Both the position numbers and the translations under genes were made by a program. Source: a virus (taxonomy: Duplodnaviria > Heunggongvirae > Uroviricota > Caudoviricetes). Taken from it: a DNA stretch of 32,076 bases. The stretch is from IMG/VR virus record IMGVR_UViG_2802429236_000001, positions 1-32,076 of that record, one strand, 5' to 3'. Positions 1,874-11,956 of the stretch are shown here, piece after piece; within the stretch, counting starts at the first letter, position 1; each line of letters starts with the position of its first letter. The notes beneath the pieces are model-generated. The model did not search any database. It was given only the letters and a program-made list of their open reading frames with translations, and had not been told where the DNA came from.

Positions 1874-2362
1874 ATGAGTCTTTTGAATGAAGTTCAGAAA
1901 TTCATTGAAGCCCATCCGGGGTGTACTTCCGGAGACATTGCGGATGCTTTTGCAGGTTACTCACGGCAGCGCGTTCTGCAGTCAGCAAGCAAGTTACGTC
2001 AGAGTGGGCGTGTGGATCACCGTTGTGAAGGAGATACACGCAGACATTTCCCGCGCCTGACTGAGAGAGCGCAGGAACCGGAACCACAACCAGTTCGTGA
2101 AACCAGACCTGTGCGCAATTCCTATGTCGGCACTAACGATCCCCGTGTGATTTTGTGCCTGACCCGCCAGGCTGAAGAACTGGAGTCCAGGGGCTTATAC
2201 CGTCGTGCTGCAACGGTGTGGATGGCGGCATTCCGTGAAAGCCACTCCCAGCCAGAACGAAACAATTTTCTGGCACGTCGTGAGCGGTGCTTACGGAAAA
2301 GCAGCAAGCGCGCTGCATCGGGTGAAGAGTGGTATCTGTCAGGGAATTTCGTGGGGGCTTAA
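1874..2362 (+). CDS. Putative PerC-like transcriptional regulator (winged-helix-like N-terminus plus PerC-like C-terminus)
   Basis: 162 aa from the ATG at 1874, with GGGGG RBS-like sequence upstream. C-terminal AEELESRGLYRRAATVWMAAF resembles the PerC/Pch family core, recalled from memory, no search run. Confidence 0.4.
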   Translation: MSLLNEVQKFIEAHPGCTSGDIADAFAGYSRQRVLQSASKLRQSGRVDHRCEGDTRRHFPRLTERAQEPEPQPVRETRPVRNSYVGTNDPRVILCLTRQAEELESRGLYRRAATVWMAAFRESHSQPERNNFLARRERCLRKSSKRAASGEEWYLSGNFVGA

Positions 2363-3015
2363 TGAGTAATAAATATTGCCAGGCGCTGGTGGAACTGCGG
2401 AACAAACCAGCCCATGAACTGAAGGAAGTGGGCGATCAGTGGCGCACGCCGGACAACATTTTCTGGGGAATTAACACCCTGTTTGGCCCGTTTGTTCTGG
2501 ATCTGTTCACTGACGGTGATAACGCCAAATGTGCTGCGTATTACACGGCGGAAGACAACGCGCTGGCGCATGACTGGTCAGAACGTCTTGCGGAGCTTAA
2601 AGGGGCTGCCTTTGGTAATCCCCCATACAGCCGCGCCAGTCAGCATGAGGGGCAATACATCACCGGCATGCGTTACATCATGAAACATGCCAGTGCCATG
2701 CGTGATAAGGGTGGGCGCTATGTTTTCCTGATCAAAGCTGCCACCAGCGAAGTGTGGTGGCCGGAAGATGCAGACCATATTGCTTTTATTCGCGGGCGTA
2801 TTGGTTTTGAACTGCCTGCCTGGTTTATCCCGAAGGATGAGAAGCAGGTGCCGACAGGCGCGTTCTTCGCTGGTGCTATTGCTGTTTTCGACAAGACCTG
2901 GAAGGGACCGGCAATCAGCTACATCGGGCGCGATGAACTTGAGGCATGTGGTGAGGCGTTTTTGGCGCAGGTTCGCCAGCAGGCAGAAAAACTTGTCAGG
3001 GAGATGGCGGCATGA
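2362..3015 (+). CDS. Phage N6-adenine DNA methyltransferase (Dam-like orphan MTase)
   Basis: 217 aa; catalytic motif GNPPYS (motif IV of amino-methyltransferases). Start ATG overlaps the upstream stop (TAATG). Matches the small phage N-6-adenine-methyltransferase family seen in lambdoid prophages. Confidence 0.7.
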   Translation: MSNKYCQALVELRNKPAHELKEVGDQWRTPDNIFWGINTLFGPFVLDLFTDGDNAKCAAYYTAEDNALAHDWSERLAELKGAAFGNPPYSRASQHEGQYITGMRYIMKHASAMRDKGGRYVFLIKAATSEVWWPEDADHIAFIRGRIGFELPAWFIPKDEKQVPTGAFFAGAIAVFDKTWKGPAISYIGRDELEACGEAFLAQVRQQAEKLVREMAA

Positions 3016-3338
3016 CGACGTTAACTCAATGCCAGCAGCAGGTGCTGGATATGCTGATTTCTTACCAGCAAGAGCGTGGCTTTCCGCCAACCAATCAGGA
3101 GGTGGCAACCATGCTGGGATACCGTTCAGTGAATGCAGCGGTGGAGCATCTTCGCGCACTGGAGAAAAAAGGCGTCATCACGATAAAGCGTGGCGTGGCC
3201 CGGGGCATCACGCTTCATACCACGGTGAAGGACGACGACAGCGAGGCGGTCGGGATTATCCGCTCACTGCTTGCCGGTGAGGAAAACGCAAGGCTGCGTG
3301 CAGCCCACTGGTTACATGAGAGGGGCCTGAAAGTATGA
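3012..3338 (+). CDS. LexA-like N-terminal DNA-binding domain protein, no peptidase domain
   Basis: 108 aa; LTQCQQQVLDMLISYQQERGFPPTNQEVATMLGYRSVNAAVEHLRALEKKGVITI closely parallels the LexA winged-HTH domain. The C-terminal S24 peptidase/dimerisation domain is absent. ATGA overlap with the upstream gene. Confidence 0.65.
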   Translation: MTTLTQCQQQVLDMLISYQQERGFPPTNQEVATMLGYRSVNAAVEHLRALEKKGVITIKRGVARGITLHTTVKDDDSEAVGIIRSLLAGEENARLRAAHWLHERGLKV

Positions 3339-5563: not shown

Positions 5564-6316
5564 ATGAACCTTGAAGCCTTACCAAAATATTACTCCCCAA
5601 AATCTCCAAAATTGAGCGATGACGCACCGGCGACAGGCTCGGGTGGTTTAACAATTACGGATGTGATGGCTGCGCAGGGGATGGTGCAGTCGAAAGCACC
5701 GCTTGGGTTTGCCTTATTCCTGGCAAAAGTTGGTGTTCAGGATCCTCAGTTTGCGATTGAAGGTCTGCTCAATTACGCGATGGCACTGGATAACCCGACA
5801 TTGAACAAATTGAGTGAAGAAACCCGGTTACAGATCATCCCTTACCTTGTGAGTTTTGCCTTTGCTGATTATTCCAGGTCTGCGGCAAGTAAGGCTCGCT
5901 GTGAGCATTGTGCTGGTACTGGATTTCATAATGTATTGCGCGAAGTGGTGAAACACTCCAGAAGCGGGGAGTCTGTTATCAAGGAAGAGTGGGTGAAGGA
6001 ACTATGTCAGCATTGTCATGGTAAGGGAGAAGTCAGCACAGCGTGCAGAGGGTGTAAGGGTAAAGGTATTGTCCTGGATGAAAAAAGAACCCGGCTTCAT
6101 GGTACGCCTGTTTATAAGATTTGTGGGCGTTGCAATGGTAACCGGTTTAGCCGTTTACCAACCACACTGGCGCGGCATCATGTCCAGAAGCTGGTACCTG
6201 CCCTGACGGATTATCAGTGGTACAAAGGATATGCAGATGTCATTGATAAACTGGTTACAAAGTGCTGGCAGGAAGAAGCATATGCAGAGACACAATTGAG
6301 AAAAGTGACAAGATAA
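5564..6316 (+). CDS. Late-gene antitermination protein Q (Cys-rich, zinc-binding type)
   Basis: 250 aa, good RBS (GGAGAACGAGC-ATG). Multiple CxxC/HC pairs (CEHCAG, CQHCHG, CRGCKG, CGRCNG). It sits immediately upstream of the lysis cassette with a promoter plus terminator pair right after it. Confidence 0.65.
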   Translation: MNLEALPKYYSPKSPKLSDDAPATGSGGLTITDVMAAQGMVQSKAPLGFALFLAKVGVQDPQFAIEGLLNYAMALDNPTLNKLSEETRLQIIPYLVSFAFADYSRSAASKARCEHCAGTGFHNVLREVVKHSRSGESVIKEEWVKELCQHCHGKGEVSTACRGCKGKGIVLDEKRTRLHGTPVYKICGRCNGNRFSRLPTTLARHHVQKLVPALTDYQWYKGYADVIDKLVTKCWQEEAYAETQLRKVTR

Positions 6317-6347
6317 ATGATTTTCGCCGAAGATGGCGACGTAATTC

Positions 6348-6376
6348 TTGCATTTTTCAAAAAATCTGGTTAGGAT
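6348..6376 (+). promoter_or_regulatory. Candidate late promoter pR' (TTGCAT-N17-TAGGAT)
   Basis: Sigma70-like hexamers with 17 bp spacing, about 30 bp after the Q stop and about 50 bp before an intrinsic terminator. This is the geometry expected for pR'/qut/tR'. Confidence 0.4.
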
Positions 6377-6426
6377 TCTCCTAACGATGGGCTTTGTATG
6401 TCTGCTGTTAACGAAATTATAACAAA

Positions 6427-6455
6427 CCTCGCTTCGGCGGGGTTTTTGCTTTTCT
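6427..6455 (+). terminator. Intrinsic terminator (candidate tR')
   Basis: CCTCGC-ttcg-GCGGGG hairpin (one G-U pair) followed by TTTTTGCTTTTC. Confidence 0.55.
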
Positions 6456-7188: not shown

Positions 7189-7456
7189 CCCGACAGCAAC
7201 TATAAATGCGCTGTTATGTGCTTGTGTTGTTATTACTCTGATGTTTTATCGTCGTGGTGATTCGCGGCATCGTCCTTGGGTTTCACGTTTAGCCTGGTTG
7301 ATTACTGTTACATACAGTGCTGTTCCGTTGGCCTATCTCTGTGGGATTTATCCTCATTCCTCATGGCCCATTATCGTGGCGAACACTATTTTTCTTTCCG
7401 TGCTGGTGGCCGTCAGAGGCAACGTTGCACGTCTGGTTGATCATCTGAGGCACTAA
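7175..7456 (+). CDS. Putative holin/antiholin-like membrane protein
   Basis: 93 aa, GTG start preceded by GGGGAGG. Two to three hydrophobic helices. Overlaps the upstream gene; its stop overlaps the endolysin ATG. Confidence 0.45.
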   Translation: MELNDPTATINALLCACVVITLMFYRRGDSRHRPWVSRLAWLITVTYSAVPLAYLCGIYPHSSWPIIVANTIFLSVLVAVRGNVARLVDHLRH

Positions 7457-8067
7457 TGAACCAACAATTATTTCAAAAGGCGGCTGGTATTAGCGCCGGG
7501 CTGGCTGCGCGCTGGTTTCCGCACATTGATGCGGCGATGAAGGAATTCGGCATTACAGCACCAGCGGATCAGGCAATGTTTATCGCTCAGGTAGGCCATG
7601 AGTCGATGGGGTTTAGCGCCGTAGTTGAAAATTTTAACTACACACCATCTGCGCTGGTGGCGACGTTCGGAAAGAGGATCACACAGCAGCAGGCTGATGC
7701 CCTTGGTAGAACATCCGGACATGCAGCTCGTCAGGATGCTATTGCCAATCTGGTGTATAGCAACCGACTGGGTAACAAAGCACCCGGTGATGGCTGGAAA
7801 TATCGTGGTAGAGGATTAATTCAAATCACTGGTCTCCGTAATTATTGCATCTGTGGCTACGCACTAAAACTCGACCTTGTTACCCAGCCTGAATTGCTGG
7901 AACAGGATGAATACGCCGCGCGCTCAGCTGCGTGGTTCTATGCTTCCCGCGGTTGCCTGCTTCATTCTGGCGACCTGGGACGCGTCACGCTGCTTATTAA
8001 TGGCGGTAGTAACGGTCTGGATAAACGCCGCGCGCTGTTTAACCTGGCGAAATCGGTGCTGGTGTGA
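7456..8067 (+). CDS. Endolysin, glycoside hydrolase family 19 (chitinase-like)
   Basis: 203 aa; QVGHESMGF...YRGRGLIQITGLRNY...INGG.NGLDKR resembles GH19 phage endolysins, recalled from memory. Confidence 0.75.
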   Translation: MNQQLFQKAAGISAGLAARWFPHIDAAMKEFGITAPADQAMFIAQVGHESMGFSAVVENFNYTPSALVATFGKRITQQQADALGRTSGHAARQDAIANLVYSNRLGNKAPGDGWKYRGRGLIQITGLRNYCICGYALKLDLVTQPELLEQDEYAARSAAWFYASRGCLLHSGDLGRVTLLINGGSNGLDKRRALFNLAKSVLV

Positions 8068-8182
8068 GGGACGGCGGCAAGTTATCCAAGCACCCATGTA
8101 ATTTAAAAAACTGGGTAGAAAGAGATGGACCGCAGGAAGAATGGCTGCTATTCTTCAGTTACTTTCGCTGGAGATGTATGGA

Positions 8183-9064
8183 ATGCTTAAAAAAGCGACA
8201 ATTAATATAAAAACTGATGAGATAAATCTCTATCAAGGAGACTGTCTTGAGTTGCTAACCATGATGGACGATTCTTCTGTAGATCTCATCGTTACTTCAC
8301 CACCGTATGCAGATCAACGAAAGAGGACTTATGGTGGCATTGCCCCTGACAAGTATGTTGACTGGTTTTCACCTATAGCGGAGCAACTGCTACGGGTTCT
8401 TAAGCCTTCAGGCTCCTTTGTGCTTAACATTAAAGAGAAGGTAGTGAATGGCGAAAGACATACATATGTTTTAGAGCTTATTCTTAAAATGCGAGAGCTG
8501 GGTTGGCTGTGGACAGAAGAATATATCTGGCATAAGAAGAATTCATTCCCTGGTAAATGGCCTAATAGATTCAGAGATTCTTGGGAACGCTGTCTGCACT
8601 TTACAAAAAACAGAAAGTTTGCAATGTACCAAGAAGCGGTTATGGTTCCTGTGGGGGACTGGAAGAATGAGAGGCTAAAAAAATTAAGCTCGCGGGACAT
8701 GATGAGGGATGAGTCGCGAGTTGGTAGTGGGTTCGGAAAGAACATTTCAAACTGGCAGGGAAGAGAAATGGCATACCCGACGAATGTGCTGCACATGGCA
8801 ACTGAATGTGGTAACAAAGGCCACAGTGCAGCATTCCCCGAAGTTCTTCCTGAATGGTTTATTCGTTTGTTTACAACAGAAGGCGATGTTGTTTTGGATC
8901 CGTTTGCAGGCTCAGGCACTACACTTGTGGCGGCATCTCGCCTGTCCAGAAAGTCAGTAGGTTTTGAATTGCTTGATGAACACTGCCAAGTAGCTAAAGA
9001 ACGACTTGGGCTGGAAAGAAAAAGGTTAACTAGCGTAGTAAGTTACAGCAAAAAAGCTGAATAG
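8183..9064 (+). CDS. Orphan beta-class DNA amino-methyltransferase (motif IV TSPPY, motif I DPFAGSGTT), possibly N4-cytosine type
   Basis: Motif order IV-then-I defines the beta class. SPPY rather than D/NPPY is more typical of N4C enzymes, which is an inference. Markedly AT-rich relative to flanking genes. Alternative starts at 8141 and 8174. Confidence 0.7.
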   Translation: MLKKATINIKTDEINLYQGDCLELLTMMDDSSVDLIVTSPPYADQRKRTYGGIAPDKYVDWFSPIAEQLLRVLKPSGSFVLNIKEKVVNGERHTYVLELILKMRELGWLWTEEYIWHKKNSFPGKWPNRFRDSWERCLHFTKNRKFAMYQEAVMVPVGDWKNERLKKLSSRDMMRDESRVGSGFGKNISNWQGREMAYPTNVLHMATECGNKGHSAAFPEVLPEWFIRLFTTEGDVVLDPFAGSGTTLVAASRLSRKSVGFELLDEHCQVAKERLGLERKRLTSVVSYSKKAE

Positions 9065-9116
9065 GTTTCTGGTTTATGGTAGTTTTCTCCTTGGTTAACC
9101 AAAGAAGGAAAATACA

Positions 9117-9398
9117 ATGTCAGGAACATGCATCATTGAAGGATGTGGTAGACATGCAGATAAAATTATCGGTGTGCGTCTGAGACGTGAACTGGATAAT
9201 TTATCTGCAATTTGGGCCCACAATACTAACGCTTATTTGTGTGATGAACATGCAGCTATGGGATTTGATGTAGAAGTAACATTTACCCCTCGGGATGACA
9301 AGACCATTAGAACAGTTGTAAGCAACGGTGATGGTGATCCAGTTGTTCGACTGAAAGCAATCACCAAACCTGTCAACCCAGATGGAACGGAAGACTGA
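9117..9398 (+). CDS. Small Cys/His-rich hypothetical protein (93 aa)
   Basis: RBS AAGGAAAA. Cys5, Cys10, His13, His35, Cys42, His45 could form a zinc site. Followed by a strong terminator. Co-located with the MTase. Confidence 0.5.
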   Translation: MSGTCIIEGCGRHADKIIGVRLRRELDNLSAIWAHNTNAYLCDEHAAMGFDVEVTFTPRDDKTIRTVVSNGDGDPVVRLKAITKPVNPDGTED

Positions 9399-9416
9399 GG
9401 TTAGTATATTTATTAT

Positions 9417-9441
9417 AAAACCGCCTTCGGGCGGTTTTTTT
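9417..9441 (+). terminator. Intrinsic terminator ending the MTase moron
   Basis: AAAACCGCC-ttcg-GGCGGTTTT followed by TTTTTA. Confidence 0.7.
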
Positions 9442-9467
9442 ATGCTTGCAAAAACTAAACTGCTGAG

Positions 9468-9745
9468 ATGGTAAAGATAATGGGAATCATAGAAATTATT
9501 GCTAGCGGTATTGTTGTGCTGGTTGCAGCCGCACTCAGCGTTTTTTACTGGCAATGTTCGTGGTTGTGGAAAAGTAGCAGAGAAAGCCAAACAGCAGCGC
9601 ACCGAAGAGAACGCAGTGGCGATCGTTGCAGCAATATCTGGGCTTCACTGCCGGGGCTGGTTATGGTCAGTTTGAGCATAAAGTTGACAGCCTGATTGCA
9701 AAATTCAAAGAAGCTGGCGGAACGGTCAGAGAGATTGAGGTATGA
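9468..9745 (+). pseudogene. Chimeric, frameshifted remnant: unknown TM-encoding 5' fragment joined to the 3' end of a lambda-type R endolysin gene
   Basis: From about 9621 the track frame reads DRCSNIWASLPG. After an apparent 1-nt deletion the next frame reads [27 protein letters not shown] and stops in the ATGA overlap with Rz. This matches the lambda R C-terminus as I recall it (...DRCSNIWASLPGAGYGQFEHKADSLIAKFKEAGGTVREIDV). The 5' part has no clear RBS. Confidence 0.5.
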
Positions 9746-10185
9746 GCAGAGTCACCGCGATTATCTCCGTTCTGGTTATCTGCATCATCGTCTGCCTGTC
9801 ATGGGCGGTTAATCATTACCGTGATAACGCCATCACCTACAAAAAGCAGCGCGATAAGGCCGCATCCATTATCGCTGACATGCAGAAACGTCAAAGTAAT
9901 GTAGCTGAACTCGATGCCAGATATACAAAGGAGCTTGCTGATGCTAACGCGACTATCGAAAGTCTTCGTGCTGATGTTTCTGCTGGTCGTAAGTGGCTGC
10001 ACGTCAAAGCAGTCTGTCCGGACATGCATAAAACCACCGCCGCCTCCGGCGTGGATGATGCTTCCAGCCCCAGACTTACTGACACCGCTCAACGGGATTA
10101 TTTCGTTCTCAGAGAGCGCATCGAAACCATAACTAACCAATTGAATGGCCTGCAAGAGTATGTGAGATCACAGTGTTCATATTAG
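9742..10185 (+). CDS. Rz: i-spanin Rz (lambda-type)
   Basis: 147 aa; [34 protein letters not shown]...[18 protein letters not shown] is near-identical to lambda Rz at both ends. Confidence 0.85.
9941..10132 (+). CDS. Rz1: o-spanin Rz1 (lipoprotein), embedded in the +1 frame of Rz
   Basis: Lipobox VVSGC, then TSKQSV...[10 protein letters not shown]...TPLNGIIS, matching lambda Rz1. Start chosen at the Met giving a 19-residue signal peptide; 9914 and 9974 are alternatives. Confidence 0.75.
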
Positions 10186-10223
10186 AAAAGTCTTATCATG
10201 AGATTTTTGTATATGGATGCATT

Positions 10224-10598
10224 ATGTCTCAATACGCGCGCGCCGCTTTAATCGCTTATCATTTGGTTGCTGATAGCTCAATGCCTCCTCGTGATGTATG
10301 GGATACAGCTGTCGCAGAGGTTACAGAAAGCGAATCGTCAAGAAAGAAGATATGCCCAAGGGCAACATTTCTCGCCCTAGCGGATAGCGGTTACCTCAAG
10401 AATGTAAAACCACTGCATGGGGAGAAAAAGGGCGGTAAGTTGTACCAAAGGGCAATTGAAGTTGCGAATCTGATTCTTGATTTACCCGGAATCAGTAAAG
10501 CTGAATTGGTTGATAAAACTGGTTACAAAGACAGGCAAGGGTCTTATGACCTGATTCTCGCTCTGTATCATCATGAGCAACTCCAGCGACCGGAATAA
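10224..10598 (+). CDS. Hypothetical protein (about 124 aa), accessory/moron candidate
   Basis: Open frame 10173..10598 in the track. No convincing RBS, so the start is uncertain. Lower GC than the core genes. No family recognised. Confidence 0.4.
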   Translation: MSQYARAALIAYHLVADSSMPPRDVWDTAVAEVTESESSRKKICPRATFLALADSGYLKNVKPLHGEKKGGKLYQRAIEVANLILDLPGISKAELVDKTGYKDRQGSYDLILALYHHEQLQRPE

Positions 10599-10715: not shown

Positions 10716-10919
10716 ATGAAAATTCTCTGGGTCATCAGTCTTTTGTGTAGTGCTATTGGATTTATTGAAGGAATCCTCGGGGTTTTCGGTGCTCAGAGTG
10801 CTCCACAACAGGCTGCAGGTGCAGCAATGGGAGTAGCATGGGCAGTTATTCCATATTGTATTTGTCGTGCTATCCAACAATTGCGCCCTCGAGAAGTCAT
10901 TATTAAAAAGGAAGAATGA
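10716..10919 (+). CDS. Small two-helix membrane protein (67 aa), moron candidate
   Basis: Strong RBS AAAGGAG 8-9 nt upstream. Two hydrophobic helices. Flanked upstream by a 9-bp perfect inverted repeat (ACTTTACTA ... TAGTAAAGT, 10644-10681) and downstream by a hairpin plus T-run near 10951-10975. Confidence 0.5.
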   Translation: MKILWVISLLCSAIGFIEGILGVFGAQSAPQQAAGAAMGVAWAVIPYCICRAIQQLRPREVIIKKEE

Positions 10920-10984
10920 CCAGATCTTATCCGGTGTTTTTTCTGTCTAAGCCTCGCGTCGCGGGGCTTTTTATTGGAGCCAGC

Positions 10985-11335
10985 ATGCCACCACGAACCC
11001 CAAAAGCCTGCCGCGTTCGCGGCTGCCGCCAAACCACCACTGACCCGTCAGGCTACTGCGAAAGCCACAAAAGCGAAGGCTGGAAACAATACAAGCCAGG
11101 ACAATCCCGTCACCAGCGCGGCTACGGTTCGAAGTGGGATGTTATCCGCGCGCGCGTGCTGAAGCGTGACAAAGGCCTGTGTCAGTTGTGCCTGCGTGTC
11201 GGTGTGGTGCGTGAGGCGAAAACCGTTGACCACATCATCCCTAAAGCGCATGGCGGCACTGATGCAGACTGCAATCTGCAGAGCCTGTGCTGGCCGTGTC
11301 ATAAGACGAAGACGGCCCGTGAACGACTGAAGTGA
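10985..11335 (+). CDS. HNH endonuclease (packaging-associated, HK97 gp74-like position)
   Basis: 116 aa from the ATG with a GGAG RBS. CQLC...DHIIPKAHGGTDADCNLQSLCWPCHKTKT is an HNH motif. Sits directly upstream of the terminase genes. Confidence 0.75.
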   Translation: MPPRTPKACRVRGCRQTTTDPSGYCESHKSEGWKQYKPGQSRHQRGYGSKWDVIRARVLKRDKGLCQLCLRVGVVREAKTVDHIIPKAHGGTDADCNLQSLCWPCHKTKTARERLK

Positions 11336-11425: not shown

Positions 11426-11461
11426 CCCGCGAAAAATGAAATTTAACCAGGAGTGCCGCAT

Positions 11462-11956
11462 ATGGCTGGAACGGCGGGGCGTTCCGGGCGTCGCCCCAAG
11501 CCAACGGCGCGCAAGGCGCTGGCCGGAAACCCCGGCAAGCGAGCCCTGAACAAAGATGAACCCGTTTTTACGCCCATCAAAGGTGTTGAGCCACCGGAGT
11601 GGTTCGCTGAAGAAGAGCTCCCTCTCGCCACGATCATGTGGCAACTGACAACCAAAGAACTCTGCGGTCAGGGCCTGCTGTGCGTGACTGACCTCGCAGT
11701 GCTTGAGCGGTGGTGCGTAGCCTATGAGTTCTGGCGACGTGCCGTGAAAAATATTGCCAGACAGGGCAACACCATCACCGGTGCAATGGGCGGCATGGTC
11801 AAAAATCCGGAGCTGACCGCCAAAAAAGAACAGGAGTCCGAGATGAGCAGTACGGGGGCAATGCTCGGACTCGACCCCAGCAGCCGCCAGCGTCTGATTG
11901 GCCTGGCGGGGCAGAAGAAAGCCACTAACCCGTTTCTGAAAATTATCGAATCATGA
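11462..11956 (+). CDS. Terminase small subunit (P27 family-like)
   Basis: 164 aa from the ATG after AGGAG. Basic N-terminus [22 protein letters not shown]. Overlaps the TerL start. Confidence 0.7.

Follow-up and report, generated by a model that had tools for sequence, protein, structure and literature searches.

Which function can a DNA methyltransferase (MTase) and a small, predicted zinc-binding protein have when they are encoded side by side among the lysis genes of a phage? We addressed this question for an element in the IMG/VR record IMGVR_UViG_2802429236_000001 (Caudoviricetes), of which positions 1–32,076 were analyzed; this whole stretch of 32,076 nucleotides is called the window in the following. 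The element lies on the plus strand, as do its own parts and the flanking lysis genes, between a GH19 endolysin gene and a spanin gene, and comprises the MTase gene M (8183–9064) and the gene for a protein of 93 amino acids, S (9117–9398). The original prediction had left three options for this pair: a protective MTase, an epigenetic regulator, or half of an uncharacterised two-gene module. The last option came closest, except that the pair represents two thirds, not half, of a Type II restriction-modification (R-M) operon with the gene order M-R-S, in which R is the endonuclease. We have little doubt that the cassette is, in origin and anatomy, an M-R-S operon that has lost R. With distinctly less certainty, we consider it probable that the cassette acts as an autonomous R-less derivative with a protective M; a regulator-like S is the more tentative part of this explanation.

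A restriction-modification operon without its endonuclease

Comparison loci for the cassette were recovered through S. After dereplication, 11 distinct loci had the architecture M-S and another 11 the architecture M-R-S, whereas S-M-R (L062) and a truncated R-S arrangement were each found once and S converged on an EVE-domain protein and a frameshifted MTase in two distinct loci. Throughout this tally the S family always adjoined the same MTase subfamily, which bears out the co-occurrence that the original prediction had proposed to check. In the three-gene operons, the MTase gene is followed by a gene for a protein of 243–252 amino acids, R, and then by an S homolog of 44–53% identity. R proteins matched PF14511 (RE_EcoO109I) with E-values between 1e-87 and 3e-92 (L006, L014, L016 and L062), and in RefSeq the middle gene of the plasmid operons is named 'PmeII family type II restriction endonuclease'. 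The parental R is a PmeII-family endonuclease of the PD-(D/E)XK type. M-R-S operons reside on ColE1-type mobilizable plasmids of approximately 5.6 kb in Klebsiella, Salmonella, Citrobacter, Enterobacter and Raoultella, and they were also found on Aeromonas and Acinetobacter plasmids, in Bacteroidota and Acidobacteria and on many metagenome contigs. The S gene is not listed in the RefSeq gene tables of the Enterobacter, Aeromonas and Acinetobacter plasmids, where it occupies positions 1774–2025 (L074), about 1830–2090 (L077) and about 2992–3250 (L079).

The 11 distinct M-S cassettes come from Citrobacter, Yokenella, Pectobacterium, Pantoea, a Klebsiella phage-plasmid and IMG/VR contigs. This R-less form was found in prophages only, always co-oriented with late transcription, at sites that differ among prophages: between Q and the holin gene, between endolysin and spanin genes as in the window, between the lysis genes and terminase, or after gpA in a P2-like prophage. 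Neither the window nor any other of the distinct prophage cassettes, 11 in total, contains an R homolog. The original prediction was therefore right in that no endonuclease partner is present in the window, but its statement that the genes are not a classical R-M pair has to be modified, as they represent two of the three genes that make up such a Type II operon. Compared with S of the window, the S proteins of all R-less loci are at least 62% identical and those of all R-containing loci at most 53% identical, which fits a scenario in which R was lost once and the R-less form then spread from prophage to prophage.

The limits of the cassette were apparent from blastn comparisons with Citrobacter-type cassettes in unrelated prophage contexts (L001, L036 and L037), the flanks of which are unrelated to those of the window. 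Homology begins at 8119 and stops at 9442, with 78–81% identity in between, and the left edge at 8119 is common to L026 and L043 as well. The mobile cassette of 8119–9442 thus holds promoter, MTase gene, spacer hairpin, S gene and terminator. Its base composition sets it apart, with a GC content of 0.40–0.45 over 8000–9500 against 0.50–0.54 in the flanks, so that the predicted low-GC block between endolysin and spanin genes was recovered. According to the definition of Hendrix and Juhala, a moron consists of a promoter, a gene and a terminator inserted between conserved genes. The proposal of a moron-like insertion was substantiated by the sharp edges and the varied positions in prophages, and the cassette resembles lambdoid morons in its distinct composition, its own terminator, a conserved putative promoter, and the presence/absence and positional polymorphism among related prophages. 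It differs from them in that its cargo is a two-gene R-M remnant instead of a single host-fitness gene, and its promoter is a predicted one.

Several relatives show other states of the system. A plasmid of Photobacterium damselae (L078, 363–1567) carries a decayed system, in which R is annotated as a 189-nt fragment and IS elements are located nearby. The virulent Jerseyvirus Salmonella phage SE2 (L076, 3001–3844) contains a plasmid-type MTase that is 70% identical to M of the window and aligns in two pieces; the gene annotation covers its 3' part only and S is missing, so that it looks like an independent, apparently degenerating capture. The convergent arrangement occurs on soil contigs (L060, 1341–3434; L066, 3995–5937), where S is convergent with an open reading frame (ORF) of 82–91 amino acids, with the gene for an EVE-domain protein (PF01878, 1e-5) whose C-terminus is nuclease-like, and with a frameshifted MTase gene that belongs to the M subfamily. 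In these soil loci, a modification-dependent nuclease and the MTase may be in conflict. In one prophage lineage (L024 and L025, 3454–4861), genes for a 351-amino-acid N6_N4 MTase and an acidic protein of 85 amino acids without assigned family are found directly 5' of the cassette, so that two pairs of an MTase and a small ORF stand in tandem there.

The methyltransferase and its predicted recognition site

M is a beta-class N4/N6 amino-methyltransferase of 293 amino acids that matches PF01555 (N6_N4_Mtase) over profile positions 1–221 of 221 (8.8e-44; 150.5 bits at a cut-off of 26.7) and phrog_67 (7e-65). Its start is almost certainly the ATG at 8183, with the Shine-Dalgarno (SD) sequence GGAG at 8170–8173, and not 8141, because the homologs all have 293 amino acids and 8141 is upstream of the conserved promoter. 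TSPPY (residues 52–56) and DPFAGSGTT (residues 253–261, both in the numbering of a 307-amino-acid ORF) follow each other in the beta-class order, a circular permutation, as the original prediction had recognized. It had also considered that the motifs might be disrupted; in the alignment with four homologs of 66–88% identity, TSPPY, DPFAGSGTT and the catalytic and cofactor motifs in general were invariant. Identity to M is 88% for the MTase of a Citrobacter cassette, 74% for that of a plasmid M-R-S operon and 66% for that of a Bacteroidota M-R-S locus. In pairwise comparisons of R-less cassettes, the median dN/dS of M was 0.038, at high and saturating dS. As far as sequence can say, M is catalytically intact.

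The closest solved structure is that of the N4-cytosine MTase M.PvuII (4e-34, residues 25–285), and further N4-cytosine MTases match too. An SPPY tetrapeptide goes with N4-methylcytosine (m4C), though not absolutely. Since M.PvuII is the nearest solved relative and M carries SPPY, M is probably an N4-cytosine MTase. Some MTases autoregulate their expression via an N-terminal helix-turn-helix (HTH) extension, which M does not have.

Upstream of M, a -35-like hexamer TGGACC (8126–8131) and an extended -10 element TGcTATTCT (8146–8154), separated by exactly 17 nt, point to a promoter belonging to the cassette, with a predicted transcription start near 8161. An anchored alignment of 15 distinct promoters from the 11 phage cassettes and from four plasmids (Enterobacter, Aeromonas, Acinetobacter and Photobacterium) contained TGGACC in 13 cases, TGGTCC in Pantoea and TCGACC in Photobacterium. 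The sequence GGWCC is thereby kept in 14 of the 15 promoters, all of which are proteobacterial: the only substitution in the hexamer of an intact system, TGGTCC, preserves the palindrome, and the only loss, TCGACC, belongs to the Photobacterium plasmid with the decayed R gene. Conservation amounts to 1.6–2.0 bits per position in the hexamer compared with about 0–1 bits in the flanks, while the -10 region shows the usual TAnnnT conservation alone. All 11 distinct phage cassettes have TGnTAnnnT at the fixed spacing with a freely varying spacer, and the plasmids keep TAnnnT at the same spacing. An inverted repeat GAAGAAT...ATTCTTC over the -10 element (8136–8156) was dropped as a candidate element because it is absent as a conserved feature from the other cassettes.

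In the window, GGACC at 8127–8131 is the sole GGWCC site within 7400–10300. The conservation of TGGACC was spotted before the specificity of PmeII was known to us. GGWCC was reported as a methylation motif of P. mendocina that matches the recognition site of PmeII (MFRE-Seq study, PMC8112702). On balance, we slightly favor GGWCC as the sequence recognized by M. Its placement in the -35 element suggests that methylation by M may feed back on M transcription. Control of a promoter by methylation of the system's own site has been described for CfrBI (bioRxiv 10.64898/2025.12.04.692298).

A conserved small protein with a predicted zinc site

S appears to be a beta-rich C2CH zinc-binding protein, as indicated by conservation and a structural model. 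The original prediction had proposed a zinc site of six residues. In an alignment of relatives, four of these (C5, C10, C42 and H45) were invariant, together with R21, R23, R24 and W33, whereas H13 and H35 vary even among close relatives and are not part of the predicted four-ligand site. Across 62 members of the family with 23–90% identity, C5, C10 and C42 were invariant, and R21, R23, A31, A39, H45, A46 and G49 were conserved in at least 90%. A profile of 13 close S sequences retrieved 125 clusters among 1.84 billion representatives, nearly all of them stand-alone proteins of 70–130 amino acids. The window is part of an Escherichia prophage. Entries with exactly its S protein exist for E. 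marmotae and under 'MULTISPECIES: Escherichia', and the 90% cluster of S also holds proteins from Salmonella, Enterobacter, Edwardsiella and Serratia. S is conserved and its median dN/dS in pairwise comparisons of R-less cassettes, at high dS, was 0.095; this excludes both a fragment of a gene and a leftover in decay. The concern that the small ORF might be a fragment, or absent from homologous cassettes, is thereby removed.

An AlphaFold (AF2) model built from the family alignment (pLDDT 91.7) is almost all beta, with one helix of four residues. A zinc knuckle at the N-terminus is combined with a long beta-hairpin, on which R21, R23, R24 and W33 lie, with a one-turn helix that contributes C42 and H45, and with a second small sheet. 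The model had no structural match in the PDB or BFVD, and a Foldseek search of viral models gave nothing significant; sequence and profile searches of the PDB with S returned noise only. S belongs to no Pfam, PHROG, NCBIfam or PADLOC family, and no HTH family matched any of the 62 members. Weak matches to EsV_1_7_cys in 7 of the 62 members (best 9e-4) are a lead only. In INPHARED phages, tblastn found no match to S and megablast none to the cassette DNA.

In rare cases the S domain is fused to other domains; it then follows XRE-type HTH domains on their C-terminal side or forms the end of large proteins with sigma-70 region 4. In one cluster representative, P0126, the N-terminus of S is fused to the C-terminal two thirds of an MTase of the M subfamily. 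Relatives below about 43% identity adjoin a ResIII helicase-like protein, a YaaC-like protein or an M48 peptidase.

We found no experimental work on S in the literature, and its sole mention was in silico: for plasmid pCS36-4CPA, an ORF of 84 codons with a 'putative THAP DNA-binding domain', a label obtained from CDD, was listed in 2016 next to an ORF with an EcoO109I domain and a methylase, and the authors noted homology to Salmonella phage SE2 (PMC5935869). S indeed resembles the THAP C2CH finger and the EsV-1-7 repeat in the pattern C-x4-C...C-x2-H and in the local motifs CxxxGC and CxxH(A/F). The THAP signature is C-x2-4-C-x35-53-C-x2-H. We rejected S as a THAP finger, as its spacing of C-x4-C-x31-C-x2-H is outside this range and no similarity to a THAP profile or fold was detected.

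The gene order of the cassette brings S directly behind M, with a spacer of 52 nt in the window and 52–67 nt across the R-less cassettes. Individual folds and RNAalifold both predicted an RNA hairpin in this spacer (9083–9112), in which the 5' arm UUUUCUCC pairs with the SD sequence of S, AAGGAAAA, and the loop is the palindrome GGUUAACC. In R-less cassettes, the stem forms between UUUCCUU and the SD sequence AAGGAAA. The SD sequence lay within the stem in all eight cassettes that were folded one by one, and RNAalifold on 12 sequences gave eight pairs, of which four show compensatory changes. In the lineage of L024 and L052, the stem is wholly different but still pairs; its use of G-U pairs favors an RNA structure on this strand. 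The L045 cassette lacks the stem. No SD-occluding hairpin was present in the R-containing plasmid operon (z = +0.28), so that it is specific to the R-less junction. Occlusion of the SD sequence implies control of S dosage, and the translation of S appears to be held down or made conditional once R had been lost.

A possible internal extended -10 element, TGgTAGTTT (9077–9085), lies 5' of the hairpin and overlaps its 5' arm; we assign it low confidence, although TGnTA(G/C)TTT occurs in the spacers of eight cassettes. Speculatively, a transcript from this element would begin inside the 5' arm and free the SD sequence for translation of S. The cassette closes with an intrinsic terminator (9417–9445) composed of AAAACCGCC, a TTCG loop, GGCGGTTTT and a T-run. 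Its stem-loop (9417–9438; -17.9 kcal/mol, z = -3.3) was the third-ranked terminator match in the region, in agreement with the strong terminator predicted originally. A GC stem with a T-run ends every cassette examined except that of Pantoea (L011), with differing stem sequences. Since the plasmid M-R-S operon closes with a similar terminator, this element was inherited from the parent operon and is not specific to phages.

How the cassette may work and which alternatives have to be considered

In a lysogen, the cassette would be transcribed from its own extended -10 promoter, and M and S would be the only genes expressed between this promoter and the terminator. In the lytic cycle, polymerase modified by Q would read through both cassette and terminator. 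M would methylate GGWCC sites in the DNA of phage and host, probably at N4 of a cytosine, and progeny phage would be immune to the plasmid-borne PmeII-family endonucleases of the same hosts. Because the cognate endonuclease is found on plasmids of Enterobacterales, methylation of progeny DNA and of the lysogen chromosome is the simplest role for M, and we consider it likely that M is protective. With GGWCC in the -35 element, methylation may feed back on M transcription, as in CfrBI. S would act as a zinc-dependent DNA- or RNA-binding regulator, a functional analog of controller proteins that lacks an HTH, and its translation would be throttled by the hairpin over its own ribosome-binding site.

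That S is a nucleic-acid-binding regulator is a tentative proposal. It draws on the small size of S, the variable gene order relative to M and R, the conserved Arg/Trp surface, the fusions of transcription-factor type, the controlled dosage, and an M without HTH extension. A more far-reaching version, which we regard as speculative, is that S represents a new class of non-HTH R-M regulators, with a fold absent from the PDB, that reads the methylation of GGWCC in the -35 element or binds GGTTAACC, the M-S pair being a self-regulating immunity cassette captured by phages and directed against a plasmid endonuclease. GGWCC in the -35 element and GGTTAACC in the M/S spacer are the sole conserved palindromes. 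If this is true, S and promoter self-methylation would set the balance of M and R.

A number of observations weigh against parts of this explanation. The assignment of GGWCC rests on a family name and on promoter conservation, and the conservation of TGGACC could simply reflect a constrained -35 element. A generic promoter scan made no call at the cassette promoter, because it has 8 of 12 consensus matches at a cut-off of 9. GGWCC is just mildly depleted in the window (observed/expected 0.66), and an analysis of palindrome avoidance in 48 kb of R-carrying loci plus the window gave no clear site signal. No GGWCC was found upstream of M in the Bacteroidota M-R-S loci, and divergent M-R-S loci showed no shared operator upstream of M. 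Neither a single R protein nor a profile of eight R sequences detected any PDB chain, EcoO109I included; the Pfam name RE_EcoO109I may mislead about specificity and was therefore not used for it. Megablast of 5,426 complete E. coli genomes returned no copy of the cassette or the plasmid system. As to S, the proteins of the phage clade are acidic (pI 4.9–6.3 compared with a family median of about 8), which is unusual for a DNA binder, and the HTH fusions could equally fit S as a sensor or interaction domain.

Alternatively, S could be an accessory subunit of the MTase, such as a DNA clamp, a target-recognition helper or a factor for activity or stability, with M and S forming a two-protein enzyme. 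This fits the strict association of S with one MTase subfamily whatever the partner (a PmeII-family R, an EVE-domain protein or none), the retention of S with M upon loss of R with purifying selection on both, and the fusion in P0126, which may however result from a deletion or an assembly artefact. M aligns over its full length with the single-chain M.PvuII, so nothing obvious is missing from it, no MTase is found next to the more distant relatives of S, and the hairpin over the ribosome-binding site argues for sub-stoichiometric amounts of S. We consider an accessory subunit unlikely on these grounds.

It is rather improbable, too, that the cassette serves mainly as an epigenetic module of lysogenic conversion, in which M reprogrammes host expression and phage protection is incidental, although this idea is compatible with the other readings. 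A conserved promoter of its own and a terminator insulating it from the late genes constitute the classical moron layout, and promoter silencing by MTases has precedents (PMC8989522). Yet the cassette always lies within the late operon and points in its direction, where it would be expressed late by read-through, and it descends from a genuine R-M system that the same host families carry.

The acidity of the phage-clade S and the retention of exactly M and S by phages that discard R could also indicate an antagonist of nucleases, either of the cognate R, delaying restriction in a new cell, or of modification-dependent nucleases that attack m4C; phages would then have kept both genes for self-protection. 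In some operons, the S start overlaps or is within a few bases of the R stop, suggesting translational coupling to R, and in soil loci S lies beside an EVE-domain protein and a broken MTase. S is unlike any known anti-restriction protein, though, without match in PADLOC or PHROG, its net charge, between -1 and -6, does not come near the charge of a DNA mimic, it occurs with unrelated partner proteins and in the order S-M-R (L062), and its conserved Arg/Trp beta-hairpin is more like a nucleic-acid-binding surface, all of which leaves an antagonist a poor prospect. Finally, the loss of R, the decayed versions (L046, L071, the Photobacterium plasmid and the split SE2 MTase) and a recombination scar next to the cassette might suggest a functionless, decaying R-M remnant caught by recombination, which we judge highly improbable given 11 distinct cassettes with intact ORFs, invariant catalytic residues and zinc ligands and a dN/dS of 0.04–0.10 at saturating dS, a promoter conserved in all cassettes, and hairpin and terminator in most.

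Comparison with known systems helps to place the preferred explanation of a protective M with a regulator-like S. The plasmid systems of the PmeII family (pSTW0522-66-5 and pCS36-4CPA) share with the cassette the MTase subfamily (74%), the S family (51%), the arrangement TGGACC-N17-TAnnnT and a similar terminator; the window differs by the lack of R, the 52-nt spacer with its SD-occluding hairpin, and the late region of a prophage as carrier. Like orphan or protective MTases of phages, of which the PF05869 gene of the window is an example, M is a solitary MTase of a temperate phage that would be expected to pre-methylate progeny DNA. Unlike these, the cassette has an obligatory conserved partner gene, is bounded by a predicted promoter and a terminator of its own, can be traced to an R-M parent, and probably yields m4C instead of N6-methyladenine (m6A).

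Controller (C) proteins such as C.PvuII, C.EcoO109I and C.Esp1396I are HTH dimers that bind C-boxes. S resembles them as a small third gene of a Type II system with variable order and low expression, and timing or feedback of M and R is a plausible common role. S differs from them as a beta-rich C2CH zinc protein without HTH, and no C-box-like operator was found. With CfrBI, the cassette shares a single recognition site inside the promoter of the system, by which the MTase can feed back. In CfrBI, the site is located in a shared divergent promoter and there is no third protein, whereas the site in the cassette is a predicted one.

Lysis genes and other neighbors

To the left, the cassette is flanked by the GH19 endolysin gene (7456–8067; PF00182; phrog_181, 8e-86) and to the right by the Rz i-spanin gene (9742–10185; PF03245, 3.5e-39; phrog_13, 5e-70), which contains an ORF at 9914–10132 as candidate Rz1. 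Just before Rz, megablast and translation in two frames revealed a frameshifted 3' remnant of a lambda-type R endolysin gene (9617–9745), here R in the sense of phage lambda. The megablast match to lambda-like R and Rz begins at 9620, and the remnant reads DRCSNIWASLPG in one frame, followed by 29 residues in the other. As this remnant abuts Rz, the front of an S-R-type lysis cassette was replaced by recombination, and the replacing segment is, as judged from the sequence, the present holin/holin/GH19 endolysin set together with the M-S cassette. The ORF at 9468–9695 (75 amino acids) is a chimera that spans the recombination scar, with an unidentified 5' part (9443–9616).

The Q antiterminator upstream (PF03589; region 5564–6445) has an embedded DnaJ-type CXXCXGXG zinc module, and terminator-like hairpins at 6324–6339 and 6424–6445 after Q are candidates for tR'. 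Downstream of Rz follow genes for a DUF6979 protein (10173–10598), a membrane protein of 67 amino acids (phrog_12304; 10716–10919) and an HNH endonuclease (10916–11335), with a terminator-like hairpin at 10949–10969 within the start of the HNH ORF. The next ORF (11453–11956) is, as a guess, the small terminase subunit; if so, it would form the usual HNH-terminase pairing. A second, unrelated MTase with an NPPY motif had been noted in the early region, and the phage indeed encodes two MTases: the gene at 2329–3015 specifies a phage Dam-type N6-adenine MTase (PF05869 Dam, 1.1e-45) that is unrelated to M.

Implications

M itself is nothing unusual within its known family, and protective MTases of phages are well known. 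What is new is that the phage pair is recognized as an R-less derivative of a widespread three-gene operon of the PmeII family, that the third gene of this operon encodes a conserved, uncharacterised zinc protein that has no detectable structural relatives and is selected without R, and that the predicted site of the system lies within its own -35 element. To our knowledge, the regulation of Type II R-M systems has so far been explained by HTH controllers, by N-terminal HTH domains of MTases and, in a small number of systems, by promoter methylation or antisense RNA. The conserved third gene of the widespread operon family described here encodes a protein with a different fold. Because S is under strong purifying selection in the absence of the endonuclease, its function is not solely to serve R. 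The phage cassette thereby constitutes a natural experiment, in which the toxic endonuclease is gone and the third gene has been kept. The system is small, its hosts are easily handled Enterobacterales, and it makes a testable prediction, namely m4C at GGWCC, including the site in its own -35 element. For the biology of these hosts, the cassette documents that small mobilizable R-M plasmids and the temperate phages of the same bacteria are directly linked in an arms race.

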